DNA from: an uncultured Azospirillum sp.
GTDB lineage: Bacteria > Pseudomonadota > Alphaproteobacteria > RF32 > CAG-239
Reading direction: 5' to 3'
Assembly (NCBI GenBank): GCA_902489795.1
Contig: CABUBU010000001.1
Location: 41,956 to 105,955 of the forward strand
Length of the DNA stretch: 64,000 nucleotides
How positions within the stretch are numbered: position 1 is the stretch's first letter; each line of letters opens with the position of its first letter. Below, piece after piece: positions 5,018-54,034 of the stretch. The notes beneath the pieces were generated by a model. The model saw only the letters and a program-made list of their open reading frames with translations. It searched no databases and was not told the DNA's origin. Made by a program: the position numbers and the translations under genes.

Positions 5018-7507
5018 ATGACAGAAGATAATGCAAAATCGAAGTTAACATTATCGGGAAAAAAAACGCTCACCCTTAAGAACCTGAGCGACGCCAGACC
5101 CGCCGGCGACGGCAAAAAAATGGTGCAGGTCGAAGTGCGCAAAAAACGGGTGATCAACCCGGCGGCGAACGCGGCCAAAGAAGTCAAAATCGACGAGGCC
5201 ACTGCCGCCAAGCTGAAACTGATCGCCGAAGCCAAGGAACACGAAGCGCGCCGCCAGCAGGAAGAAGAGGAAAAGGCGGCTCTGCGGCAGAAGCAGAAAG
5301 AGGAAGAAGCCCGCTTAAAAGAGCAGGAAGAACAAAAACGCCGCGAGGAAGAAGAGCGCCTGGAAAAAGAAAAGGCGGAAAAGGCGCGTCAGGCAACGGA
5401 AAAAGAAAAAGGCCGACCGGAAAAGGCAGAAGACGAACGCGACTTCAAGAACAAGGAAAAGGAACGCCGGGGCAAAGACTTTGACGACGAGGACGACGAA
5501 GACGACCGCGCCAAAAAGGCCCGTCCGACGACGGAAAAAGGCAAAAGCAAAGCAGAAGTCTTTGAGCAGGAACGCAAAAAAATCACCAAACGCAGCTTTG
5601 AACCGCAGCGCCGCAACCCGAAAGTAAACATCCACACCTTCGGCGGCAGCGACGATGACGACGACGATTACGGCTATGCCGCGCCCCGTCGCCGTTTCAA
5701 GAAAAAACAGCCGAAACCGGCACCGGTCGTCCAGCCGCAGGAAAAGATCATCAAGGAAGTGATCATTCCCGAGGTTATTACCGTACAGGAACTGGCCAAC
5801 CGGATGGCGGAAAAAGGTGCCGAGGTCATCAAAAAACTGATGTCTCTCGGAGTGATGGCCACCATCAACCAGCCGATTGACGCCGACACCGCACAGATCA
5901 TCGTCGAAGAAATGGGTCACAAATGGAAACGGGTGGCCGACAGCGACGTCGAAATGGTCTTAAACGAAGAACAGAGCAAGCCCGAAAATATGCTGCCCCG
6001 CGCACCGGTGGTTACCGTCATGGGTCACGTCGACCACGGCAAGACCTCGCTTTTGGACGCCTTGCGCGAATCCAACGTTGCTGCCAAGGAAGCCGGCGGC
6101 ATCACCCAGCATATCGGCGCTTATCAGATCACGCTCGGTGACGGACAGAAGATCACTTTCATCGATACACCGGGACATGAGGCGTTTTCCGAAATGCGTG
6201 CCCGCGGCGCCAAGGTAACCGACATCGTAGTGCTGGTAGTGGCCGCCAACGACGGCATTATGCCGCAGACGGTGGAAGCCATTCGCCACGCCCAGGCGGC
6301 GGAAGTGCCGATCGTGGTCGCCATCAACAAAATCGACCTGCCCGGCGCCGATCCGCTGAAAGTTAAGACCGCGCTTTTACAGCACGGCATCGCGGTTGAA
6401 GAAATGGGCGGCGAATGCCTGTGCGCCGAAGTTTCCGCCAAAAAGCGGATCAACATCGACAAACTGGTGGAAGCGATCCTGCTGCAGGCGGAAATTCTTG
6501 ACCTCAAAGCCGATCCGACCAGCAAAGCCAGCGGCACCGTCATCGAGGCCAAAATGGAAAAGGGCCGCGGCTCGGTTGCCACCCTGCTGGTACAAAAAGG
6601 CACATTGAAAGTCGGCGACATCATCATTGCCGGCAAAGAATGGGGACACGTCCGCGCCATGTTCAACGAACACGGACACAAGATTTTCGAATCCGGACCG
6701 GCCACCCCGGTCGAAGTCATCGGTTTACAGGGCACCCCTGCCGCCGGCGACAACTTCAACATGGTGGAAAGCGAATCCCAGGCCAAGGAAATCACCAACT
6801 ACCGCATTCAGAAAGAACGCGACGCCAAGTTGGTCAAGAGCGCCAAATCGGCGATGGAACAGATGCTCGACAAGATTAAATCGGGCGAATCCAAACACCT
6901 GCCGGTCATCATCAAGGCCGACGTCCAGGGTTCGATCGAAGCCATTGAGGGTACATTGAACAAACTATCGAACAACGAAGTCAGCGTCCAGATCCTGCAT
7001 TCGGCGGTCGGCCCGATTTCAGAATCCGACATCACGCTGGCCAAAGCCTCCAACGCGTTGATCATCGGCTTTAACGTCCGCGCGATTCCGCAGGCTCGCG
7101 ACATGGCTCGCCGCGACGGTGTTGACATCCGTTATTATTCGATTATCTACGATGTGGCCGACGACGTTAAGAAAGGTCTGGAAGGTCTGCTTTCACCCGA
7201 ACTGCGCGAAAAACTTCTCGGCTATGCGGAAATCCGCAACGTCTTCAACATCACCGGCGTCGGCAAGGTGGCTGGCTGCATGGTTACCGAAGGTCTGGTC
7301 AAACGCGGCGCCAAAGTCCGCCTGTTGCGCGACAACGTGGTCATCCACGACGGCAGCCTCGGCCAGCTGAAACGCTTTAAGGACGACGTCAAGGAAGTCA
7401 AGGAAGGCTATGAATGCGGCATGAGTTTTGAAAACTACAACGACATTCAGGTCGGCGACTTCATCGAATGTTACGAAATCGAAACCATCGCCGCCAAACT
7501 GGCGTAG
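5018..7507 (+). CDS. infB: translation initiation factor IF-2
   Basis: Charged K/E-rich N-terminal region, G-domain [14 protein letters not shown] and DTPGHEAF, C-terminal beta-barrels. RBS ggaga upstream of the ATG at 5018. Confidence 0.95.
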
Positions 7508-7589
7508 GAGATTAACTTCGGAGCAGACCGGAAATCCGGCATCGCCGGACTTTCGGTCTGTTGCGCATAAAAAAAAAGAGGAACAATAA

Positions 7590-7970
7590 ATGGCAATCAA
7601 AGAACAATCCCAGCGGCAGCTTCGCGTCGGCCAGGAAATCAAACGGATCATTGCGGCCGAAATAAACCAAGGCCGGGTTCGCAATCTGGAAGGAATCAAC
7701 ACTCTGGTCACCGTTATGGAAGCTCAGGTATCCCCCGACTTAAAATATGCAGACATCTATTTCATCACCTCCAACCCGGAAACCGACAAGGAAGTTCTCG
7801 AAGGGCTGCAGTTGGCGGCCAACCACTTCCGCAAAGTCGTCGGCACCAAAACGGCGCTGCGCTTTGTTCCGGAAATCCGCTTCAAGATCGACGACAGCTT
7901 TGCTGAGGTTGATAAGATTGAAAAACTGCTGCATGATCCCAAAGTCGCCCGGGATTTAAGCGAAAACTAA
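7590..7970 (+). CDS. rbfA: ribosome-binding factor A
   Basis: RbfA family sequence with an RBS aagagg, in the conserved infB-rbfA-truB order. Confidence 0.85.
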   Translation: MAIKEQSQRQLRVGQEIKRIIAAEINQGRVRNLEGINTLVTVMEAQVSPDLKYADIYFITSNPETDKEVLEGLQLAANHFRKVVGTKTALRFVPEIRFKIDDSFAEVDKIEKLLHDPKVARDLSEN

Positions 7971-7974
7971 TCCG

Positions 7975-8003
7975 TTTCCCGGCAAAGTCCGGGATTTTTT
8001 TTC
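7975..8003 (+). terminator. intrinsic terminator after rbfA
   Basis: Hairpin tcccggcaaagtccggga followed by T8. Confidence 0.65.
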
Positions 8004-8049
8004 ACGTTCCGCGGAAAACTTTCCGCCGGCAGCCAAGGAGAAACATCCG

Positions 8050-8979
8050 ATGAAACACCGCAAAGGAGACCCCGTCAACGGCTGGCTCGTCATCGACAAG
8101 CCGGAAGGCATGGGTTCGACCGAAGTCGTCAACCTTACCCGCCGGCTGCTCAACGCGCAGAAAAACGGTCACACCGGCACGTTGGATCCTTTTGCCAGCG
8201 GAATTTTGCCGATTGCGTTCGGAGAAACCACCAAACTGATAGATTTTCTCGGCGACGAAACCAAAGAGTACGAATTCACCGTTCAATGGGGTACGGAAAC
8301 CGACAGCGCCGACAGCGACGGCAGCATAACCGCCGACAACGGAAGAATTCCGGCAGATGAGGAAATTCTGGCCTTATTGCCGCAGTTTTGCGGCGAGATC
8401 ACACAGACACCGCCGGCCTTTTGCGCCGTTAAAATCAACGGCCGCCGCGCCTACGAGCTGGCCCGTAAAGGCGAGGAAGTGAACATTCCCGAGCGTCAGA
8501 TTACCGTTTACGAACTGGAATTTACGGGCAGCCTGCCCGGCGGCCGCAGCAGCTTCAAAGTCCGCTGTTCCAAAGGCACTTACGTGCGCAGCCTCGGCCG
8601 CGACATCGCCCGCCGGCTGGGCACCTTCGGCCACCTCTGCCGCCTGCGCCGAACCCGTTCGGGAATTTTTGACGAGTCGGCAAAAATTTTGCTGGAAACT
8701 TTGCAAAATGTAGTGTATGTTGACGAACGTAAACGATTTTTGCTTCCGTCAGAAACCTCTCTGCGCGACATCGCGGTCATGGCTGTTTCGGAAGCGGAAG
8801 CCGCCAAACTCCTTCACGGACAGGCATTGTCACCCAAATCGCGGGAACATTCGTTTTCCGTCGGGCAGACGGTTGCCGCCGTTTGCGAAGGCCGGCTGGC
8901 GGCAATGGTGCGGATCGAAGAAACCAGGTTTTCGCCGGTTCGCGTATTTAATTTTAACCAGGAAAAAAAGGAAAAATAA
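8050..8979 (+). CDS. truB: tRNA pseudouridine-55 synthase TruB
   Basis: Motifs [16 protein letters not shown] and a PUA-like C-terminus. Confidence 0.9.
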
Positions 8980-8981
8980 AG

Positions 8982-9251
8982 ATGTCGATTAGCAAAGAAA
9001 TTAAGAACGAATTGGCCAAAACTTACGGCCTGGCCGAAGGCGACACCGGTTCGCCGGAAGTTCAGATTGCGATCTGGACGACCCGCATCAACAACCTGAT
9101 CGAGCACTTCAACGTTCACCGCAAAGACCTGCACTCCCGTCTGGGTCTGATGAAGATGGTCAGCAAACGCCGCCACCTTCTCGACTACCTGAAGAAAAAA
9201 GACGAAAAGAGATATCAGGAAATCATTAAAAAGCTTAACATTCGTCGTTAA
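8982..9251 (+). CDS. rpsO: 30S ribosomal protein S15
   Basis: 89-aa S15 sequence, ...[21 protein letters not shown].... Confidence 0.95.
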
Positions 9252-9257
9252 GGTTTT

Positions 9258-9340
9258 GCAAGTATTGCGGAACATCAAACGGGTTCCGCAATACTTTTAT
9301 CAAAATCCTGTCCTCATCCGGACAGGTGATGTTTAAAGAT
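9258..9340 (+). promoter_or_regulatory. rpsO terminator/attenuator hairpin plus a second pnp-leader hairpin (likely RNase III / autoregulation site)
   Basis: gcaagtattgcggaac-atcaaacgg-gttccgcaatactt followed by TTTTAT, then cctgtcc-tcatccg-gacagg before the pnp RBS. Confidence 0.6.
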
Positions 9341-9367
9341 GTAAGATGAAAAGAAAGGTAAGACAAT

Positions 9368-11494
<2,127 letters not shown>

Positions 11495-11615: not shown

Positions 11616-11981
11616 TTACGAATTTTCGTCTTCAAGCTTATAATCTTCACGGGATTCCAGGTAACTAAGCTTCATCTCATCTCCGTAAATATAGATAACG
11701 AGTGCCGTATAAGCCAAAAGAAAAACCCATGTGCCGATTGATACTTTAAACTCGTTATAGCCTTTCACGTACCACTCCCAATAACTATCCGGCACAAAAC
11801 CTTCATAAAACGCTATAATAAGCCACAACGCGGCGTATATGACCATCCCCAACGACGGCATAATGAACAGAAAGGGAATTATGAAAAGCATTGTAAAAAC
11901 ACACAACAATTCCAAACAGCACACGACAATCCTCAGTAAAATTTTAATAACTTCGGTTTTCGTAAGCGATAAAAATTTCAT
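11616..11981 (-). CDS. hypothetical small polytopic membrane protein (AT-rich island a)
   Basis: 121-aa ORF with 3-4 hydrophobic helices in a low-GC context; no recognisable family. Confidence 0.35.
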   Translation of the reverse strand: MKFLSLTKTEVIKILLRIVVCCLELLCVFTMLFIIPFLFIMPSLGMVIYAALWLIIAFYEGFVPDSYWEWYVKGYNEFKVSIGTWVFLLAYTALVIYIYGDEMKLSYLESREDYKLEDENS

Positions 11982-12102
11982 GCCTCTTTTTCTTTCCTTA
12001 CCACTGATAAAAAATGTTATTTGCCGTCAAACAGTTTGTCAATAGTTTTATCGACAAACGCCCCTACCGTCTCACCAATCACAGGATTCAAAATTTCCCT
12101 CA

Positions 12103-12957
12103 TCACCGGTGCCCAGCTACACCAAAAAGTTTTCTGTTAATTTCTTTACCTACTACGCCTCCGGCAATATTACTCAGCACATTTTTAACATAATCACCGC
12201 CGCGATTTTCACTGCTGCCCACGCCATAAACTATGCCTGAAACTATAGTGCGGATATCTTCATTGCTAGTTTTAATGTGTAACGGCGCCGTTCGAGCCGG
12301 TTGTTTGATTAAATTCAGAGGACTTGCACGAGCTCCGACGATCTCAGCTATACCGGTCAGATAAGGCGACTCTCCATACCCGTCCTGCAGATTCTGCCGT
12401 CGTTGATTGCGTATGCGATGGTATCCGCGCTGAAATGCATTCCATCCTGAAGCATCCTGATGGGTAGACAAGGGCGAATAATGCGCCAGGGCATAAAACA
12501 AACCATGGATCAATCCCTCTGCTTCATCAGACCAACCAAAAGATAAACCCTGTATACCCGCGTTTGCCATATATTCACCGTTGCGCATAACGTCCTGCTA
12601 TAGATTTGTCTGTTCTTCCCTGTTTTGATCTTGCATCGGATGAATACGAACGTCCCCATTATTTGTATGAGCATAAATTGCGGAAGAGGAATTGGGATAT
12701 TGACTCTTCTGCTCCCGATTACCGTGATCCTCTTGATGAGCAAAAACGGATGACGACGAGCGCGCATCATCCGGAACGTCAATTATCCCAAAATCAGAGA
12801 TCGTACTGTAATCGTCCGTATGAAACGGATTCAAATAATAATAAGAACTTTCGCCCGGCCGCGGCATATGCCGCCTGATCAACATTTTCCCGTTAAATAT
12901 TTTATCTAAAATTTCTCTTGTATCTGACATGACGGTTACTTTTGCAAACAATTCCAT
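12103..12957 (-). pseudogene. split paralog of the 41645-42333 locus: N-domain ORF (12598-12957), in-frame TAG at 12598-12600, then C-domain ORF (12103-12588)
   Basis: The two ORFs share a frame and are separated by a single amber codon plus 3 sense codons. The N-domain aligns with 42103-42333 (..FNG..I.R..P..G....YY..). The C-domain shares GEY and NWGKETE/GWSDEAE motifs with 41645-42151. Confidence 0.45.
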
Positions 12958-13084
12958 ATTACATTATAGGTATAACATAAAATGTATTTAAAGTCAATGC
13001 CAAATAACAGTCCGCAAAAAAGTGCCGTCCGGGATCGTTAAAAACACGAACGCAAAAAGCGTCCCGTTTTCTTCCGGGAAAAAA

Positions 13085-13351
13085 CTACATAACCAGCAGT
13101 GCTGCAAGCGAGCAAACAATGACGACATAACAAAACAGCTTCCAATACCGGCCGTCCTTATAACCAACCAAATAAACGTCAAGCACGGGGAGTATGACGT
13201 AAAAGGAAATGTCCCACCAAAAACCGTTATATTCCGGCATAAAGAAAATGATGCGGACGAGAGCCACCGTCAGCAAAACCGCCGCGGCCGCGCCCAGAAA
13301 AGGCAGTTTTTCCCAACTCAAAGCTTTTCTCCTTTCCTTAAAGTCAGTCAA
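13085..13351 (-). CDS. hypothetical small membrane protein
   Basis: 88 aa with two TM helices, overlapping the upstream small membrane ORF by 8 nt. Confidence 0.3.
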   Translation of the reverse strand: MTDFKERRKALSWEKLPFLGAAAAVLLTVALVRIIFFMPEYNGFWWDISFYVILPVLDVYLVGYKDGRYWKLFCYVVIVCSLAALLVM

Positions 13352-13646
13352 CGGGATACAACAGAATTAACGTTTCAATTTCCGACGAAAAAACATATGT
13401 CAGCAACAGAAGAAGCAAACAAACACCGCTGAAAACCGCCGTCATCTTTGGATAATCGGGAGAAGTCAAATTAAACTGGAGCCATTTAAGCATAAAAATC
13501 AAAGGAACAAATACCCCCGACTTCCCCCGCCTCGGTCGGTGAGCCATGCCGAATTCAAACATCCATTTGAGAATGACCCATAATGCCAAAACGGCAAAAA
13601 TGACAGCCGGACGCCGGCTGCTATCCTGTTCTGTATCGCTTTCCAT
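13344..13646 (-). CDS. hypothetical small membrane protein
   Basis: About 100 aa starting at MESDTEQ with two TM helices. The track ORF extends upstream into low-complexity AT-rich sequence. Confidence 0.3.
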   Translation of the reverse strand: MESDTEQDSSRRPAVIFAVLALWVILKWMFEFGMAHRPRRGKSGVFVPLIFMLKWLQFNLTSPDYPKMTAVFSGVCLLLLLLTYVFSSEIETLILLYPVD

Positions 13647-13809
13647 AATGCTTTGATAACACACTCCCGTTGAAAAATCCACCACAAACGACAATCTGCA
13701 TACACAACCGGCCGGGCGCAAAAAGGCATTATTTGTGCTTGCAATAATGAAAGAGAAGTTATAGGTTGATTGCATTAAATTAATTAACCTAATTTTATGT
13801 AAGGATAAT

Positions 13810-16236
<2,427 letters not shown>

Positions 16237-25484: not shown

Positions 25485-26411
25485 ATGACCGAAATTACTG
25501 CCGCAAAGGTAAAAGAATTAAGAGAATCGACCGGCGCCGGAATGCTTGACTGCAAAAAAGCTCTGGTTGAAGCAGACGGCGACATGGAAAAGGCCGTCGA
25601 CTGGCTGCGCAAAAAAGGCCTGGCCTCGGCCGCCAAGAAAGCCAGCCGCGTTGCCGCCGAAGGTCTGGTCGCGGTTGCCGTGGAAGGCAACAAAGGCGCC
25701 GTGGTCGAGGTTAACTCCGAAACCGACTTCGTTGCCAAAAACGAAATTTTCCAGGAATATGTCGAAGACGCCGCTCTGGTTGCCCTGATGAACAACGGCG
25801 AACTCTGCGATATGAAAAACTTCCAGTGCCCGAAAGTTCACAAATCTTTTGAAGAACGTCTGACCGACATGATTGCCAAAATCGGCGAAAACATGAATCT
25901 GCGCCGCGCCAAAGTGGTCGAAGTCAGCGAAGGTGTTGTTGCTCCCTACGTTCATAACGTTACCCGCAACAGCCTCGGAAAAATCGGCGTTTTGGTCGCT
26001 TTGGAATCCAAAGCGGACAAAGCCAAGCTGGCCGAACTCGGCAAACACATTGCCATGCACGTCGCCGCTTCCCAGCCGTTGTTCCTGACCATTGCCGACG
26101 TCGATCCGGCCGCGGTCGAACACGAAAAGTCGATCTTTGCCGAACAGGCCAAAGCTTCCGGCAAACCGGCCAACATCATTGAAAAAATGGTCGAAGGCCG
26201 CATTCGCAAGTACTACGATGAAGTCGTACTTGAAGAACAGGCTTACATCATGGATCCCGACAAAAAGGTTAAGCAGGTTATTGCCGACGCCGCCAAGGAA
26301 TTGGGCGCCGACATAAAAATCAAGGATTTCGCCTGCTTTAAATTGGGCGAAGGCATCCAGAAAAAAGAAGAAGACTTTGCCGCTGAAGTTGCTGCTCAGC
26401 TGAACAAATAG
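25485..26411 (+). CDS. tsf: elongation factor Ts
   Basis: UBA-like N-terminus ITAAKVKELRESTGAGMLDCKKAL and EF-Ts dimerisation domains. Confidence 0.95.
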   Translation: MTEITAAKVKELRESTGAGMLDCKKALVEADGDMEKAVDWLRKKGLASAAKKASRVAAEGLVAVAVEGNKGAVVEVNSETDFVAKNEIFQEYVEDAALVALMNNGELCDMKNFQCPKVHKSFEERLTDMIAKIGENMNLRRAKVVEVSEGVVAPYVHNVTRNSLGKIGVLVALESKADKAKLAELGKHIAMHVAASQPLFLTIADVDPAAVEHEKSIFAEQAKASGKPANIIEKMVEGRIRKYYDEVVLEEQAYIMDPDKKVKQVIADAAKELGADIKIKDFACFKLGEGIQKKEEDFAAEVAAQLNK

Positions 26412-26443
26412 TTCTTCTTTTCAAGAAGCAAAAACAACCCAAA

Positions 26444-26469
26444 ACGCTCCGGAAACGGGGCGTTTTTTG
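26444..26469 (+). terminator. intrinsic terminator after tsf
   Basis: Hairpin acgctcc-ggaaac-ggggcgt followed by T6. Confidence 0.6.
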
Positions 26470-28080
26470 TGCCCCGCCTCTGCATCGATCTCGAAGTTCT
26501 TAAAAATTTATAACAATTCCCCAACAACCCTCTCTGTTAGAATGTAATTCCTGACAATTATAAAAGCTTATGAACAAAGGGGATATAAAATAAACACACA
26601 CAAGTTAGTCCCTGAAAATAGAATGTTGTTCTCACCCCAAAATATCGCAGGAAGGCACTCTCGGAACTTATCACCAAAAATAGATTCAATATAAAGCAGA
26701 CAATTTTGGTATAAAGAATGCGACATTGATATAACAGGAAAGCCCACCGGAAGATAACCGAACATATACGGAAGCGGTTAAAAGAATCCGTAGAGTAAAG
26801 CCGGCTCACAACGAATTTTGGCCAGTTTGCCGGTAGCAAGTAATCTTGCCGGACGGAATTAAATTTATCATCCAAGCAAGACTGTTAAAATGAGACTTAT
26901 TTGTCATATGAAAACAATCGTACATATTTGTGGCACCTCAGACATTCCTTTTTCACTCCGGAAACATAACGATTGCTTAAAAGAAAAAGCGCTTTTCTTG
27001 CCGTCTGTCCTCCTCCTGCCTTTAGGCTTAATTGCATTTTTTGGATTTAATTATTCGATTCAGCCGATACGCATCTACCTTTTTGAATACCGTTTTTAAT
27101 TTGATTTTTTCAAATCATGGTTTTCCGCCTTTTATTTTTTTCTGCATCTCGGCCAGTCTGTAGCAAACTTTTCCTCCGGGGAAATCAGCAGAAGCGTACA
27201 AGGCTTTATAAATAAACATGCCTCTAAGATTTCAGAACGTTTGCCGACACCGACAAACTAATAATACAGGCCGTCTTCCGCCGCCCCTCGCATCGCCGCA
27301 CGTTGTTTTCTCGCCTTTCCGATCCTGTTCACCGCTCCCTTGCCTGACGTTTTCGTATCATCATTTTAAAAGTTCGCCTTCTCCCTCTCCTCGCAGTTCT
27401 ATTTTGAATTCATCTTAACGTTCCGAAGAAAAACAAAGGAGAAGAGAAAAAGGCGTACAAAATCAATCGGGAACAGCATAAACACAATAAAAACTTAATA
27501 CGGCAAAAACCGGTCTTCTCCTGCCGGCGGAAAAACGCCGCTCCCAAACCCCGGCACAACAAAGGGGAAACGACGAAACAAAAAGTATTTTAACCCCCAA
27601 TAGACTGTGGTCCTATAGAAAAGGCACCTTTTGGTTCCTTTTCCTTACCGCTGCAAAAGGAGCTGACCTAAATCTATCGTCCCTGCAATGCTGTATAATG
27701 TTTAATTTTTTCTTCATCTAAACCAACGCTGCTGATGGAGTATCCCCGCAACCAAAATACATTTTCTTCAAAATATACTTTGCTGAAGCCAAGTAAACTT
27801 GGCTCTTATTTGTAGAATATTGGCTTTTCAATGGTGCCATAACATCTGCTATTACATATCTTGGCGCTATTGTCATAACAAAATAAGCATGGAGCCGATC
27901 TTCTCTGTCTTACATTCGTTCTTGACAGCTTTAGCAGCCCTCTCCCCATCGGGAATGCTTCCCGTCAGCTTTAGCAGTCCAAGCAATAATTTCCTGATAT
28001 AATCCACGATACCAGTAACGATACTTATACGCCTACAAGACACGATAACTCAAACGGTAAACTTTGGTTGACCTCGTGCG
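26470..28080. other. 1.6 kb AT-rich non-coding stretch (possible decayed remnant)
   Basis: No ORF above about 100 codons in any frame, only short low-complexity ORFs, and much lower GC than the flanks. Confidence 0.5.
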
Positions 28081-28150
28081 ACTGCTATAATTCTTTATAG
28101 CACTGTCGTCCTGAGCATTAAACCACCATTAAAATGGATGGATAGCATCA
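28081..28150. repeat. truncated third copy (C) of the structured repeat family seen at 35405 and 49832
   Basis: cattaaaccaccattaaaatggatggatagcatcaaaaca aligns with the 3' part of copies A and B (..ttcaacc.c.attaaaatggggg..gcatcaa.aca). Confidence 0.4.
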
Positions 28151-28182
28151 AAACAATATGAAAAAAGAGAAAAAAGTATTTT

Positions 28183-28224
28183 TAAAACAACAACAGCCGG
28201 CCGGAAAACCGGCAGGCTGTTGTC
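28183..28224 (-). terminator. intrinsic terminator for the minus-strand paralog pair
   Basis: Long GC stem acaacagccggccgg-aaaa-ccggcaggctgttgt, with a T-rich tail on the minus strand. Confidence 0.65.
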
Positions 28225-28244
28225 ATAATAAGAAAGCACAAACG

Positions 28245-28781
28245 CTAATTGAGCAAACCGCCGCTTCTTTCCAACGAGCGGCGCATAATCTCATTGTTGA
28301 CGTAAGCAAGCATTTCGGCATCCTTTTCGTTCTTTGCGGAAGTTTCCTTCAACGCATCCGCCCAGTCGAGCAAAGCGTTGAAATCCATATCGACCAAAGC
28401 TTCGGCAATTTCTTCGGGGTCAGCTTCCGTCAATTCGGCGCTGTCGACAACCCGGTAACCGCGTTGCTCCATCTCGCGAGCCGTCAAAGCGTCGAACCTG
28501 CGAATGATTTCAATCGTCTGCCGTTGGTTTTCCGTCAGATTTTCCTGTTGAGACATCACAATCAGTGCCATCCGCAACTTTAACCCCAAACAACACAAAG
28601 CATTGTCGTCCAATGCGGTAATCGTTACGCTTTCCAGCTCTTTTAACAGCTGATCAACGTTAATGTTCATGTGCAGCATTTCCATAATATCAAAATTTAA
28701 AACGTTTTTAATATGCTTAAATATCCAAACTTTGATCGGAAAACCGGCCGTCCGCAACGGAAAAGCAGGTTTCCCGTTCAA
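28245..28781 (-). CDS. hypothetical acidic protein, paralog of the upstream gene (P2)
   Basis: Aligns with 28782-29219 (LKEL.., RGYRVVDSAELTEAD vs RGILIVDASELIVGH, and the C-terminal ..RRSLERSGG vs ..ARRGGSGG). Start is uncertain: TTG at 28781 abutting the P1 stop, or ATG at 28685. Confidence 0.5.
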   Translation of the reverse strand: MNGKPAFPLRTAGFPIKVWIFKHIKNVLNFDIMEMLHMNINVDQLLKELESVTITALDDNALCCLGLKLRMALIVMSQQENLTENQRQTIEIIRRFDALTAREMEQRGYRVVDSAELTEADPEEIAEALVDMDFNALLDWADALKETSAKNEKDAEMLAYVNNEIMRRSLERSGGLLN

Positions 28782-29219
28782 TCAGGCCATACCGCCGCTG
28801 CCGCCGCGCCGGGCAATTTCCTCATAAACCAGCCTTTTCAAAACCTGAAAAGGATCGTGTTTATGCAAGGATTTGGTCATTTCTTCCAACTCGTCTACCA
28901 ATCGCACCAGATATTGTAGAGAAAATTCTTTCAAAACTTCCACAATATCGGCCTCATGACCAACGATCAGTTCACTTGCATCTACAATAAGAATACCGCG
29001 TTTTTTCAGCTCGCACTCTATCTTTTCCAAATAATGGACAAAACCGTTAACCATTGTTCTTTCAAACGGAAGCAGTCGCTCCTGCTTGTCATAAACAGAA
29101 ACAATAACTTTTGTGTAAATCGCCAGCGTTATCAACTCACCGTCATAACACTTTACAAAGTCTTTTGTTGTCAATTCCTGCAAAAATTTAGGAACAGCCA
29201 GTCTTTCTTCTTTTTCCAT
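28782..29219 (-). CDS. hypothetical acidic protein (P1), tandem paralog
   Basis: 145-aa ORF in the AT-rich island with no recognisable family, followed immediately by its paralog. Confidence 0.5.
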   Translation of the reverse strand: MEKEERLAVPKFLQELTTKDFVKCYDGELITLAIYTKVIVSVYDKQERLLPFERTMVNGFVHYLEKIECELKKRGILIVDASELIVGHEADIVEVLKEFSLQYLVRLVDELEEMTKSLHKHDPFQVLKRLVYEEIARRGGSGGMA

Positions 29220-29296
29220 ATAAATAAGATTAATAATTATTTTACATAGCGGTCATTATGCCAAATACTGGACAAAAATCAATATTTTTTTACAAA

Positions 29297-42876: not shown

Positions 42877-43437
42877 TTACTTGCTGACGATGACCATCGC
42901 CTCCCGCAATATCCTGTCATTAATCATATATCCGGTCTGCAGTTCGGCCACGACGGTACCGGCGGGTTTGGACTTGTCTTCCACTTCCTGCACCACCTGA
43001 TGGAAAGCGGGATCGAAAACTTTGCCCATCGGCTCCATTTTGGTGACGCCGAACTTGGCCAGCACTTTGCTCAATTCCGATTCGGTCAGTTCCACGCCTT
43101 TTTTCAGCTGTTCGCATTCAATGCTGGTCAACTCCTCGGCGGCGGCAAGCGCCCGGTGCAGATTGTCTGCTACGGAAAGAATTTCCTTGGCAAAGGAGCT
43201 GACGGCATATTTGGAGTTTTTCTCCATTTCCGCGGCGCAGCGCTTTTTGGTGTTTTCCAGTTCCGCATACGCGCGCAGATAATCGTCTTTCAGCTTGGCA
43301 TTCTCCGCTTTCAAAACTTCCGCCTCACGGTCGATTTTTTCCGCGGCTGCCTCGATTTCCTCCGTCAGATTTTCATTGTTTTCCGATGCCTGTTCGCATT
43401 CGTTTTCGGAGTTATGCTCTTTTTTATCCTTTTTCAT
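42877..43437 (-). CDS. grpE: nucleotide exchange factor GrpE
   Basis: Coiled-coil N-terminus and the GrpE signature ..ELQTGYMINDRILREAMVIV. Confidence 0.88.
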   Translation of the reverse strand: MKKDKKEHNSENECEQASENNENLTEEIEAAAEKIDREAEVLKAENAKLKDDYLRAYAELENTKKRCAAEMEKNSKYAVSSFAKEILSVADNLHRALAAAEELTSIECEQLKKGVELTESELSKVLAKFGVTKMEPMGKVFDPAFHQVVQEVEDKSKPAGTVVAELQTGYMINDRILREAMVIVSK

Positions 43438-43580
43438 TTTTCCCTCTTTAATTTTTTTTCAAAGCGCGTATATTTCTTATATACAACATTTAATGATTAA
43501 AGATAAACAAGTCAAGGGGAGAAGTTTTTATTGCCTTTTTAATTGATTATTAAAACAGACAATATATATTCTTTTTACGA

Positions 43581-50283: not shown

Positions 50284-51510
50284 CTAATGAACAAAAGTAA
50301 GCCAACCGCTGTACATACCTTCAACGGTCAACTCATCTATTTTCATTTCGACTTTCAGTTCCAGATAATAATGGTACTCGTTTCCGTTGTTCTCAATGAA
50401 ATCCCAGTCCATACTTGTAATTTGAACCTGTCTGTTCTCCATTGAACAACCGGCCATTTCCTCTATTAAAACTCCGTTATCGAACACAGCCGAATAACGA
50501 ACAAAGGGAATCCTCAATTCAAAATCGCCAAAATTCAGTATACAATCTTCAAGAATTCTTTCTTTTCTTATATACTTTGTATCGCTATCTTCAAAATAAC
50601 GATCTTTTTCAACTATTTGAATTTCCTGAAGTGACACATCATCAACGGTTCCATTCACCTTGATTGCTTTCGCTTCGGCAGCTTCACTGTAAACCTGCAG
50701 CGGTGTAGAAAAAACTTCTTCCCGAGTTACACCGTCAGAGTAATCTGAAGAAACTTTTATTGAAGAGATATAAGTATTCTCATTACTTGAAAAATCAACA
50801 AACTTATCAAGCACTTTACTACGCAGGATGAAAGGATCGTTACCTTCTCCCATTTCTCTCTTCAACATTATATTCGCATGCAGTTCATATGTTTCTCCGC
50901 CAAAGTCAACGGAAATTGAATGATGATAAACTCTTCTGGCATAAGTATATCTGCCGTCCGAATAAGAATCAATCACTTCAAACTGACCACCATTATCTTT
51001 TATGTTGCTGTAATACAGATATGGCATTACCTGACGCGTAACTTTATCGTCATAAACGGCGACTTCGTAGTTCAGACGATACTCAAATGAGAACTCATTG
51101 AATTTTACCGTATAAACAGCCGCAGAATCAGTAACGGTAACAAAACCGTCCACTCTTTCGTTACCTGCTTCATTTGTCAAGGACGTTTGATAATCCTCAA
51201 AGTTCCAAATTCCCACAACACAAGTGTCAGCCACATCTTTCAGCTCACCATTAAGAGTAACCGATACTTTGTTCTCGAATGCGGCGCGGGTCTGTCCCTT
51301 CACCATAATCCAAGATTCGTAGCTCAGTTTGGTTCCCTGTTCCGTCGTTTCCGATTTGATATTTTCACTCAAACCTTCATCCAGAACTTCACTTTCAATC
51401 ACTTCCGGCAATTCGGGCTCATCCTTTTCGCAGGAAGCAAAAAATACCATACTTGCAAATACGACAACTGTTGCCATAAATTGCATAAACTTGTTTGTCT
51501 TCATAATCAA
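50284..51510 (-). CDS. hypothetical lipoprotein (Bacteroidetes-style lipobox FFASC followed by EKDE)
   Basis: 408 aa with a signal peptide ..VVVFASMVFFASCEKDEPE, in low-GC context with no recognisable family. Confidence 0.5.
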   Translation of the reverse strand: MIMKTNKFMQFMATVVVFASMVFFASCEKDEPELPEVIESEVLDEGLSENIKSETTEQGTKLSYESWIMVKGQTRAAFENKVSVTLNGELKDVADTCVVGIWNFEDYQTSLTNEAGNERVDGFVTVTDSAAVYTVKFNEFSFEYRLNYEVAVYDDKVTRQVMPYLYYSNIKDNGGQFEVIDSYSDGRYTYARRVYHHSISVDFGGETYELHANIMLKREMGEGNDPFILRSKVLDKFVDFSSNENTYISSIKVSSDYSDGVTREEVFSTPLQVYSEAAEAKAIKVNGTVDDVSLQEIQIVEKDRYFEDSDTKYIRKERILEDCILNFGDFELRIPFVRYSAVFDNGVLIEEMAGCSMENRQVQITSMDWDFIENNGNEYHYYLELKVEMKIDELTVEGMYSGWLTFVH

Positions 51511-51802
51511 AAAGTTTTAAAAGTTGAACAAATATTTCGTCGTTTTATTTATTTTCAATTTGAAAATCTACAACTTTATAAGCAAACAGTCCAGCTTTAA
51601 CAAAGCTCCGTTATTCTTTCTAAAAATATCTTAAATAGTTGTAGATAATAATTTCTGTTAAAAAGGTTCCGTTTTACGTCCGGTAGACATTATAGTTTTT
51701 TGAGCTTTATTATAATGAGTTTTTGTCAAAATAATTTTTCCGGGAAATCCGGGGAGAAAAATCAATCCGTTCTCTCCCCGAATTCGGTTCGATTATCTCG
51801 GT

Positions 51803-54034
51803 TTAGTTTCCGCAATCCGAAAAGTCTCGATATACATCCGGATGCCCGACGACATAGACACGCCCCTGATTCCAATCTACGTCCTGCGCAAGCTTATCAC
51901 ATTTCCCGCAGCGGCTCCTGATACCTCTCGAAATATAACGTATATGATGCTCAAGGGTTTGTTTCTTATCCTTATTGATCGTTGAAAACCACCAATAACC
52001 ATCCGTATACGATTTAGATTCATTATACAAACTGCAGCTTCCGGTACAAAGCGTCGTATGCTTACGATGGTCATTACACAACATTTGCGTCAACCCTTTG
52101 CACCATTTCCAATATCCATTGCTGCTGTATTTGATTTTGGCATAGTTGCCGGAACCGTAATCGGTCGAATAGATCGTGCTTTCCGGAGTAGTACCGACAA
52201 CATAATTCGTCTTGCCGTTATACATATTCCAAATCAAATTTCCGCTAATTCTGACTTCCATACCCGGAGCAGCCATACCATAATTAGGATAATTGGAACC
52301 GTCATATTTTGCCTTACCATCATAACCAGAGCCTTCATAACCAATACGAACATTGGTATAAACATTGGCAGGTGTCGCATCGCTGGGACCAACGAAAGTC
52401 AGATATCCGTTTACCTTGCGTTCATAGTAATGCTTCGTTCCGGTAGTAGCCCAAGAAGGATAAACATAAACCGTTCCGCCGTTGAAAACATTTCCGGCCT
52501 TAAAAGTGAACTTTCCTCCTTCTCCTCCCCAGGCTTCTGTTTCAATATACATACTTCCAATGTCAAAATTATAACCGGTAGCTTCAATTCCGTCTTTAAA
52601 TTCAGAACTGTACATTCCGAATTCCGGTTCAGAGTTAGGCATATTGTCAACTTGCTTCAAAGTAAGCTTTCTCCTAAAGCTCGCTTTTCCTTCAACATCT
52701 GTATTATACAAAGTCAAAGCCCCGACTTCTCTGTCCGTACCGGAAAAATAAAGTTCCGACCCGTAAACAGTCAAATCCAAAGAACTTGAAAAATAATTAG
52801 AAATATATAACGTAGGAACAACCGTTTTTTCCGGTTCATAGGTACCGCAGGCTTCTTGTACCATCTTATGATCAGACGTATACCCGGTAGTTCCGAAATA
52901 AGCTCCCGAATAAATTGTTTTTGCCTTTGTACCCCCAAGCCCTGAAGAATACGAATCTGCGGCAGTTACATTTTTCGCCAACACACCCTTGGTCGCTTTG
53001 GTATTTTCTATTTCCGCACCTACTGCATAGGTCTGCTGGGCTTCCGGAAGTTTGGCTATTTCAGCATCTGTCAACTTAGCATAACCAACCAGCTTGCTAC
53101 CGTTAAATACGCCATAATCCGTATTCGGATGCTTCATAAAGAACAGCTTGACTGCATTTTCGCAGGAAATACGTTCACATGCCGAGCCGTCTTTGTTCGG
53201 CTGCCAGCCTTGTTTACATTGCGTTATCTTAAAACGTCCTTTCCGCGGACAATCGCAGGTCGTCCACTTGGTCGCAAGCTGATCGTTCGGACGGCCGCCG
53301 CGTTCGCCTTCCGCTGGGAACGCCGCGCACGAACAACATTCCTGGAAGAAGTAGACGCCACCCTGTACGCAGGCCTTGCCTTTACCACCGAACTCGCAAT
53401 CAACCGATTCCCATTTGTACGGAGGATTGCTGCATTTGCAAGAATCCCAGTACTGGTTGCCCATGCTGTCCTGACACGGATCTCCGTTGACGTCCGCATT
53501 CGCCGTCGTCTGACAGTCGTCTTTCGAATACGGATACAAACCGCGCTCGCACAGACACGCCGAGTAATACAACGTCTTGACGGTCGAACTCGAACCCGCG
53601 TCTATCTGCGTACAGGCCGTACCGCCGGGGTTGCTGAACTTAAACTTTGTATGACAGGCTTCTTCCGTATAAGGATATTTTTCCGGATCACACTGACATT
53701 TGAACTTGCTGCCGCATTTGTCTACCGTTACATGCGGATAAACGCAGGAGTCGTAAACATATTCGTTGCCGCAGCACATGACGTAATTGTTGTTATACGG
53801 ACAATAGCCGGTAACGTGGCGCGATGGATCGGCATCGCATGCGCTTTTCAGAATATACCCTTCATCCGTACACACCCTGCCGTCTTCGCCCGGATCCTTA
53901 TAATCTTCAAAACTGCCGCCGCCGGTACAGTTTTCCTCACCGACAAAGCAGACTTTGGCCGAAGCCTGAGTACAAAAAAGCGCACCGCAAAAGAATGCAG
54001 CGAGCACAAGTATCCATGAATTGCGTGTTTTCAT
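51803..54034 (-). CDS. large secreted cysteine-rich protein (N-terminal Cys-rich modules, C-terminal G/Y/T-rich beta-rich region)
   Basis: 743 aa with a signal peptide. About 50 Cys in the first 330 aa in spaced, repeated patterns, then a Tyr/Gly/Thr-rich region. Low GC. Confidence 0.5.
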   Translation of the reverse strand: MKTRNSWILVLAAFFCGALFCTQASAKVCFVGEENCTGGGSFEDYKDPGEDGRVCTDEGYILKSACDADPSRHVTGYCPYNNNYVMCCGNEYVYDSCVYPHVTVDKCGSKFKCQCDPEKYPYTEEACHTKFKFSNPGGTACTQIDAGSSSTVKTLYYSACLCERGLYPYSKDDCQTTANADVNGDPCQDSMGNQYWDSCKCSNPPYKWESVDCEFGGKGKACVQGGVYFFQECCSCAAFPAEGERGGRPNDQLATKWTTCDCPRKGRFKITQCKQGWQPNKDGSACERISCENAVKLFFMKHPNTDYGVFNGSKLVGYAKLTDAEIAKLPEAQQTYAVGAEIENTKATKGVLAKNVTAADSYSSGLGGTKAKTIYSGAYFGTTGYTSDHKMVQEACGTYEPEKTVVPTLYISNYFSSSLDLTVYGSELYFSGTDREVGALTLYNTDVEGKASFRRKLTLKQVDNMPNSEPEFGMYSSEFKDGIEATGYNFDIGSMYIETEAWGGEGGKFTFKAGNVFNGGTVYVYPSWATTGTKHYYERKVNGYLTFVGPSDATPANVYTNVRIGYEGSGYDGKAKYDGSNYPNYGMAAPGMEVRISGNLIWNMYNGKTNYVVGTTPESTIYSTDYGSGNYAKIKYSSNGYWKWCKGLTQMLCNDHRKHTTLCTGSCSLYNESKSYTDGYWWFSTINKDKKQTLEHHIRYISRGIRSRCGKCDKLAQDVDWNQGRVYVVGHPDVYRDFSDCGN

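Follow-up and report, generated by a model that had tools for sequence, protein, structure and literature searches.

Two loci in a 64,000-nucleotide (nt) stretch of DNA from an uncultured Azospirillum sp. of the RF32 lineage (contig CABUBU010000001.1, positions 41,956 to 105,955; hereafter the window) have the same layout. Each consists of a promoter-like region, a broken gene that we read as a toxin pseudogene, and an intact gene for a small membrane protein of the kind that could provide immunity (Table 1). Locus 1 is located between pnp and the gene for an H+-PPase, locus 2 between an NMO-type gene and grpE. Both lie in AT-rich pockets amid housekeeping genes, with a guanine-plus-cytosine (GC) content of 37–45% vs about 53%. 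An earlier note on this DNA had interpreted the two broken genes as paralogues interrupted at the same junction, and had offered a conserved two-cistron arrangement, programmed recoding or parallel inactivation as possible reasons.

Table 1. Positions of the features of the two loci in the window (ORF, open reading frame; aa, amino acids).
Feature	Position	Strand	Description
Locus 1 promoter-like region	12961..13000	minus	TTTAAA-18 nt-TATAAT, 12992..12963; kept in locus 2 and in orthologous loci
Locus 1 toxin pseudogene	12017..12930	minus	ancestral ORF 304 aa
Locus 1, lesion 1	12598..12600	minus	TAG at codon 111, first residue of the C-domain
Locus 1, lesion 2	12112..12115	minus	1-nt deletion in G-run, near codon 273
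Locus 1 immunity-type gene	11616..11981	minus	intact, 121 aa, multi-pass membrane protein
Locus 2 promoter-like region	42365..42410	minus	TTTATA-16 nt-TATAAT, 42392..42365; a homologue of the locus 1 region
Locus 2 toxin pseudogene	41645..42333	minus	ancestral ORF 229 aa
Locus 2 lesion	42195..42200	minus	1-nt deletion at codon 46; A6 here vs A7 in L013–L018
Locus 2 immunity-type gene	41073..41597	minus	intact, 174 aa, three predicted membrane helices

At locus 1, two minus-strand ORFs (12957..12598 and 12588..12103) share a frame and are separated only by a TAG codon (12600-12598) and the residues Q-D-V before a Met, as the earlier note had correctly described. Alignment of the regions upstream of the loci shows that the ATG at 12957 is not conserved; the true start is the ATG at 12930 (MSDTREIL…). 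From there the ancestral gene encoded an N-domain (about codons 1–60), a disordered linker (about 61–110) and a helical domain that we call C1 (about 111–304).

Intact single-ORF versions, which the earlier note had proposed to look for in related genomes, do exist for locus 1. A protein search returned two of them. P0001 (307 aa, 91% identity over 99% of the query) belongs to a sister lineage (contigs L011/L012; DNA identity 92%). P0002 (305 aa, 66% identity) is syntenic, adjoining the H+-PPase gene in another species (L001–L004), and its gene is present in ‘uncultured Azospirillum sp. UMGS149’. In both groups of contigs a TGG codon (Trp) is aligned with the TAG of the window. Both intact proteins also continue beyond the apparent stop of the window with …GVAG-APVMREILNPVIGETVGAFVDKTIDKLFDGK, which means that the window carries a second lesion and that the ancestral ORF ended at 12017. 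The G-run affected is G5 in the intact sister lineage and G4 in the window, where there is a further G>T at 12115. Its deletion shifts the frame into a stop at 12105-12103, and the last 31 residues are lost. This deletion is not mentioned in the earlier note.

One could argue that the stop codon and the homopolymer deletions are sequencing or assembly artefacts. After all, two of the three window lesions are 1-nt homopolymer deletions, and error-like deletions of this kind do occur in a public contig, L028 (Logan SRR16329071 contig, 1460 bp), which has three separate ones within 800 bp in a single sample. We took these three as sequencing errors and dropped P0016, the product of L028, as a third independent frameshift allele; frameshifts seen in one contig of that collection need confirmation from other samples. 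In the window lineage, however, the TAG and the G-run deletion are both present in six of six other metagenome contigs (L005–L010; 99.5–99.7% identical), which were assembled independently in different projects. The frameshifted 76-aa product of locus 2 (P0127) is on record from 70 contigs, and the TAG is a substitution, not an indel. Since the same lesions are found in independent metagenomes, they are real and common to the window lineage, and we give an artefact practically no credence.

At locus 2, the ORF 42333..42103 overlaps the ORF 42151..41645, which lies in the −1 frame. We aligned the DNA of this locus with six contigs of the sister lineage (L013–L018, 92% identity), in which the A-run at the break is one nucleotide longer. 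A protein of the sister lineage (P0004) reads …EELIEEKNIPWFDYRR… straight across the window's break, as predicted. The sister lineage has breaks of its own further along the gene: codon 127 has undergone a TAC>TAA change, and near codon 207 one nucleotide is deleted. The nearest intact relative of locus 2 is P0108 (238 aa, same architecture), which is encoded downstream of gyrB in another organism.

The ancestral locus 2 toxin had a short form of the N-domain (about codons 1–45), a linker and a toxin domain of the prok-SAA/Lipocone type. Prok-SAA is a polymorphic-toxin tip of the Lipocone superfamily, and the SAA-Wnt clade has the conserved active-site motif s-N-x-x-G-R (Burroughs, Nicastro and Aravind, eLife 2025, PMC12419801). 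The Pfam model SAA (PF00277) matches the repaired locus 2 protein with an E-value of 9.6e-11 and 42.4 bits against a curated cut-off of 30.8, and P0108, P0006 and P0106 are likewise above the threshold. The C-domain of locus 2 retains the motifs D-K-F-F-H and A-N-x-x-G-[RK]. Compared by eye, the window's A-A-N-L-R-G-K-R-G has Lys where the published motif has Arg; P0108 reads A-N-W-R-G-R.

The two loci are related, although only in part. Their N-termini align over about 33 residues (14/33 identities; E-value for the pair 2e-5 in BLASTP), both match one N-domain profile that is found in more than 50 proteins, and the similarity reaches upstream into the promoter-like region with a common TATAATGTAAT. 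The resemblance of the locus 1 N-terminus to 42103-42333, which the earlier note had pointed out, thus stands. Its alignment of the C-terminal parts, with the suggestion that locus 1 is SAA-like too, does not. BLASTP found no match between the two C parts, a profile–profile comparison of 19 C1-type with 10 SAA-type domains (hhalign) gave a probability of 0.1%, and Pfam SAA matches locus 2 but not locus 1. Because the C-terminal parts are unrelated, the alignment must have been due to chance. A tblastn search with all six products found no further copies of either locus in the window.

Nor are the two genes broken at the same junction, as had been supposed. The first break of locus 1 is at codon 111, whereas that of locus 2 is at codon 46, 23 codons upstream of METGEY. 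If the sister lineage is included, there are five lesions and they are scattered: codons 111 and about 273 in locus 1, codon 46 in locus 2 of the window, and codons 127 and about 207 in locus 2 of the sister lineage. Such scatter fits ordinary decay, which the earlier note had considered unlikely. Its idea of parallel inactivation survives to the extent that the genes were inactivated independently; the break positions and the C-domains are not homologous.

A further possibility is that the break reflects a conserved two-cistron design, with a small N-protein and a separate C-protein that starts at Met-x-x-GEY. This reading can point to an AGGA 4 nt upstream of the ATG at 12588, a possible ribosome-binding site, to the 161-aa C-terminal ORF of locus 1, which is annotated in public records and occurs on at least nine contigs, and to the low ratio of nonsynonymous to synonymous substitution rates (dN/dS) of the C-domain, 0.17. 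The AGGA, however, merely corresponds to the conserved Gln-Asp codons. Most C1 homologues have Leu, Val or Ile in place of the Met of M-R-N-G-E-Y, and in them the domain starts upstream, at the mutated Trp (W/F-x-x-x-[LMV]-R-x-G-E-Y). For the C-frame of locus 2 there is no conserved start, and its homologues lack that Met altogether (‘ENSDRY’ in P0108, ‘NSGDF’ in P0079). Since the Met is not conserved in either set of homologues, Met-x-x-GEY is not a conserved start, contrary to the earlier note. Moreover, the C-terminal ORF is truncated at its own end by the G-run deletion. The orthologues from two other lineages are single ORFs with Trp in place of the TAG, family members other than obvious fragments have the N-domain and a toxin tip in one ORF, and a split at these sites has so far been seen only in the window lineage. 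A two-cistron arrangement is therefore very unlikely.

Programmed recoding would explain the breaks differently. Readthrough of the TAG at locus 1, together with a slip by −1, during translation or transcription, on the A-run at locus 2, would allow a low, regulated level of full-length toxin. A-runs are slippery, and a −1 slip of tRNA-Lys on G-GAA-AAA-ATA would restore the ancestral EEK-NIP exactly. Nevertheless, GAA-AAA-ATA in the zero frame is not an X-XXY-YYZ heptamer, and the ancestral states are a plain TGG and an in-frame A7. The 80–85 nt that follow the TAG and the A-run fold no better than shuffled sequences (z of +1.45 and +0.22). TAG is a normal stop codon that terminates infB, rpsB, tsf and dnaJ in the window, and the window contains neither a suppressor tRNA nor a Pyl tRNA, its sole tRNA being tRNA-Arg. 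Locus 1 would also require a second, independent frameshift event at the G-run, so that two separate recoding events would be needed. Programmed recoding or readthrough, as entertained in the earlier note, is thus highly improbable. Low-level spontaneous slippage may still occur on the A-run of locus 2, although nothing indicates that it is programmed. The apparent split is gene decay, not recoding.

While the toxin genes are broken, the genes that follow them are intact. The immunity-type ORF of locus 1 begins 35 nt past the ancestral toxin stop; that of locus 2 lies 47 nt downstream of the toxin and is also intact in the sister lineage (dN/dS 0.40). Thus, at both loci a membrane-protein gene is closely linked to the toxin gene on its downstream side, as is characteristic of polymorphic toxins, and its product would protect the cell. 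Reported immunity proteins of prok-SAA/Min-Wnt toxins include a membrane-anchored domain with four invariant cysteines (PMC12419801). The 174-aa ORF of locus 2 ends in C-x16-C-x3-C-x9-C and by pattern alone would fit this four-cysteine type. A similar pattern, C-x14-C-x3-C-x9-C, is found in an ORF of contig L025 that has no significant BLASTP similarity to the 174-aa ORF.

Related loci carry larger sets of such genes. Downstream of the intact toxin in L002 there are four homologues of the locus 1 immunity ORF and two small membrane ORFs of a second type. Of these six small membrane ORFs (6900-9722), it is the second (7433..7732), not the first, that is closest to the window immunity ORF (60% vs 42%), and it may be an orphan immunity gene against a toxin of the window type. 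L025 (1-3884) is a compact multi-cassette that encodes a small membrane protein with four cysteines, a toxin with N-domain and SAA-like tip (211 aa), a 77-aa membrane ORF and an orphan C1-like fragment (136 aa, no N-domain) followed by three paralogous membrane ORFs of 110–115 aa.

When did the toxin genes die? Between the window and the intact sister copy, toxin 1 has an overall dN/dS of 0.31, with 0.69 in its N part and 0.17 in C1, and on the window branch there are 6 synonymous and 7 nonsynonymous changes, the nonsense codon included. For toxin 2 the dN/dS between the window and the sister lineage is 0.145. These low values indicate that the toxin genes were constrained until recently and that their inactivation is recent. 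The locus 2 cassette also appears to have a history of its own. Its synonymous divergence (dS) is 0.20 at 92% nucleotide identity (window 41000-43500 vs L013–L018), well below that of the adjacent grpE, which has a dS of 0.52 and about 81% identity at its 3' end. This difference suggests that the cassette was moved or recombined between the lineages after they had diverged.

Taken together, we consider it likely, with good confidence, that each locus is a toxin–immunity cassette, that the two belong to a single polymorphic-toxin family, and that their toxin genes have recently become pseudogenes while the immunity genes have been kept. Each locus would be a small, AT-rich, horizontally acquired cassette with a sigma-70-like promoter, one toxin gene and, close behind it, a gene whose product, a small multi-pass membrane protein, would shield the producing cell. 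The toxin itself would consist of a conserved N-terminal alpha/beta domain of about 35–60 aa, a disordered linker and a variable C-terminal tip, so that loci 1 and 2 would belong to one family with unrelated tips. The prok-SAA/Lipocone tip of locus 2 would be active in the periplasm, where it would cleave the head groups from lipid carriers (lipid II, for example), and the C1 tip of locus 1 would act on the envelope or the membrane. In the window lineage both toxins would be dead, one through TGG>TAG at codon 111 and the 1-nt deletion at about codon 273, the other through the deletion in the A7-run at codon 46. Because both immunity genes are intact and both toxins are dead, the cell most likely retains protection against the two toxins without producing them.

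Some points weigh against this explanation. First, for the two domains of locus 1 there is no match among Pfam or NCBIfam models or among solved structures. Second, no secretion apparatus or delivery route has been identified, and there are no secretion genes beside any locus examined. Third, a fully intact orthologue of locus 2 was not found. Fourth, some constraint may still act on the pieces of the broken genes, which would also account for their low dN/dS. Fifth, re-initiation at the ATG at 12588 after the TAG, with the AGGA before it, could yield an accidental C-terminal fragment of 161 aa.

Within the same explanation, it is conceivable that the losses were themselves selected, which corresponds to the parallel inactivation of the earlier note. 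If the toxin were costly or self-harmful, for example after the delivery route had been lost, knock-outs would be favoured while immunity would be kept. Two unlinked toxin genes are dead next to intact immunity genes, the sister lineage inactivated locus 2 independently, the low dN/dS speaks for recent deaths rather than for the end of a long drift, and the lesions are fixed across samples. Yet both the sister lineage and another species still have an intact locus 1, and the five scattered lesions, three of them in homopolymer runs, are equally expected neutrally once constraint is relaxed. We therefore think that selected loss is rather unlikely.

This explanation takes the two loci off the list of candidate recoding events: the apparently conserved break consists of two ordinary recent pseudogenes. 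It would also mean that a gut bacterium retains immunity to two toxins it no longer makes, which is relevant to bacterial antagonism. This is a known kind of system that has undergone a known kind of decay. The novelty rests in the N-domain and the C1 tip, for which there is no match in Pfam, in NCBIfam or among solved structures.

We searched 1.84 billion representative proteins with a HMMER profile built from the locus 1 protein and the locus 2 N-domain, which gave 121 matches. The N-domain is found at the N-terminus of more than 50 proteins of 33–627 aa. It has the motif T-R-E-x-L-x-x-I-F-N-G-x-x-P-[IV]-K-R-x-N-P-x-x-G-[EQ]-S-x-Y-Y-Y, and in many cases [IV]-D-V-P…P-N-P and a linker of low complexity come next. 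Behind it we identified GH108, phage-lysozyme/pesticin-like, Tlde1 (P0074) and, repeatedly, SAA-like tips, in addition to the C1 of locus 1. A shared N-region with diverse and unrelated C-terminal toxin domains, in which the tips are interchangeable, is the architecture of polymorphic toxins. Conversely, C1 occurs at the C-terminus behind other N-modules, namely the C-terminal half of Phage_Mu_F and PG_binding_1, and in P0006 the same PG_binding module stands ahead of an SAA-like tip.

AlphaFold2 predicts P0001, with 42 homologues as input, as a small alpha/beta N-domain (predicted local distance difference test, pLDDT, 80–93), a disordered linker (68–107) and an all-helical C1 domain, whose C-terminal part is glycine-rich. 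A sequence search of the PDB with locus 1 returned nothing meaningful, and a tblastn search of phage and plasmid collections with a C1 protein gave no match. There are weak hints of a link to phages all the same: the first half of C1 (Q-G-L-x-x-G-[FW]-x-D-E…R-G-Y…R-D…) matches the phage family phrog_5880, whose function is unassigned, with E-values of 2e-6 and 2e-4, and a virion structural protein of the Myxococcus phage Mx8 (BFVD Q94MR2) with an E-value of 0.06. The same half is also found near the N-terminus of two long proteins, P0123 (821 aa) and P0125 (578 aa).

Some C1 toxins (P0012, P0013, P0024, P0025, P0047 and P0067) have no full N-domain and keep a P-D-Y-x-x-M-[ST]-x-R-[ED]-x-L-E sequence. 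This resembles the first helix of the N-domain ([LM]-[ST]-T-R-E-[IL]-L), which may be a separable recognition element. The N-terminal ‘DTREIL’ could also be compared with ‘DTMVV’, the TonB box of pesticin. We do not claim that it is a TonB box, since AlphaFold places DTREIL in a confident helix that is packed on a small sheet.

The toxins of loci 1 and 2 have no signal peptide. A protein-database search with the N-domain alignment, limited by its word index, gave three matches, and a search for related loci with a narrower alignment gave eight, mostly short, metagenome contigs and no viral ones. Other family members are located on short contigs beside housekeeping genes such as gyrB, with no secretion genes. 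In the literature we found nothing on secretion systems in gut Alphaproteobacteria of the RF32 type. For all tips identified behind the N-domain the predicted target is the cell wall or a lipid carrier, which fits contact-dependent periplasmic injection and bacteriocin-like uptake alike. That one delivery domain would unite a Lipocone/SAA-type tip, lysozymes and Tlde1 turns the delivery route into a testable question. It is possible, though somewhat less likely than not, that the N-domain of about 55 aa is a delivery module not described before and the hallmark of a separate class of short polymorphic toxins without signal peptide, and that C1 is a new toxin tip, which is shared with phage-borne toxins of the MuF type and has a distant relationship to the N-terminal region of virion proteins of phages.

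Several other features of these sequences deserve mention. The locus 1 toxin is separated from the H+-PPase gene by 853 bp here (window 12958-13810) and by 293 bp in the related species L001. The extra DNA contains an 88-aa membrane ORF on the minus strand (13351..13085) with no family match, followed by two terminator-like hairpins (13079-13048). In the island of the window that is richest in AT (50284-54034, 36–42% GC) there are two ORFs with no match in Pfam: one of 408 aa, whose N-terminus looks like that of a lipoprotein, and a cysteine-rich one of 743 aa, whose N-terminus resembles a signal peptide. Another AT-rich stretch, after tsf (26400-29250), has few long ORFs; two adjacent ones on the minus strand (28781..28245, 178 aa, and 29219..28782, 145 aa) have no Pfam match. 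In the related contig L020, a 226-aa membrane ORF (7397-8077) is located about 2 kb upstream of an N-domain toxin, beside a ybgC-tolQ-tolR-tolA-like cluster. By eye, its C-terminal part (…RGMVIHGG…) resembles an L,D-transpeptidase or Tlde1-type motif.

How do the two loci compare with known systems? The closest framework is that of polymorphic toxin–immunity systems, reported by Zhang, Aravind and colleagues in 2012; such systems include cases where the toxin has decayed and immunity genes are retained or orphaned. As in these systems, a conserved N-region is combined with interchangeable C-terminal tips, an immunity gene would lie directly downstream of each window toxin, related loci contain arrays of immunity paralogues and orphan toxin fragments, and the loci form AT-rich islands inserted amid housekeeping genes. 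Unlike typical polymorphic toxins, the proteins are short (about 200–300 aa), lack both a signal peptide and a delivery region of the RHS, filamentous or PAAR type, and carry an N-domain that is absent from Pfam and NCBIfam.

For locus 2 the comparison can be made more specific. Prok-SAA domains are predicted to cleave head groups from lipid carriers, in analogy to TelC and lipid II (PMC12419801). Like these toxins, locus 2 has a C-domain above the Pfam SAA threshold. The motifs D-K-F-F-H and A-N-x-x-G-[RK] can be read in it by eye, and the membrane protein encoded next to it would fit the four-cysteine immunity type by its pattern. In contrast to the published examples, the locus 2 tip is fused to an N-module that we did not find in the main text of PMC12419801, and the gene is frameshifted; its activity on lipid carriers is a published prediction.

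Colicin M, pesticin and pyocin M are similar in a different way. They, too, are small proteins built from modules and have no signal peptide; a targeting part at the N-terminus is joined through a flexible linker to a tip directed against peptidoglycan or lipid II, and an immunity gene is linked to the toxin gene. However, the N-terminus of the window family is predicted to be folded, whereas theirs is a disordered TonB or Tol box; furthermore, no lysis gene was seen at our loci, and neither sequence nor fold matches.

Type VI secretion system (T6SS) effectors with MIX, FIX or RIX markers, and those of the Tlde1 type, also place a short N-terminal marker ahead of diverse tips that act in the periplasm, Tlde1 among them, and are likewise encoded away from any secretion gene cluster. 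The window family differs in that it has no MIX/FIX/RIX/PAAR-type Pfam match, so that a connection to the T6SS would rest only on the kinds of tips. No T6SS genes were seen among the window ORFs that were inspected or scanned, which were not all of them, or in the fetched loci.

A last comparison concerns the polymorphic toxins of the MuF type in temperate phages, reportedly described by Jamet and colleagues in 2017. Unlike those, the genes in the window lie outside any prophage and encode no MuF domain. The two groups are nevertheless alike in one respect, as the C1 tip is also found behind the C-terminal half of Phage_Mu_F, in P0008, P0052 and P0011.

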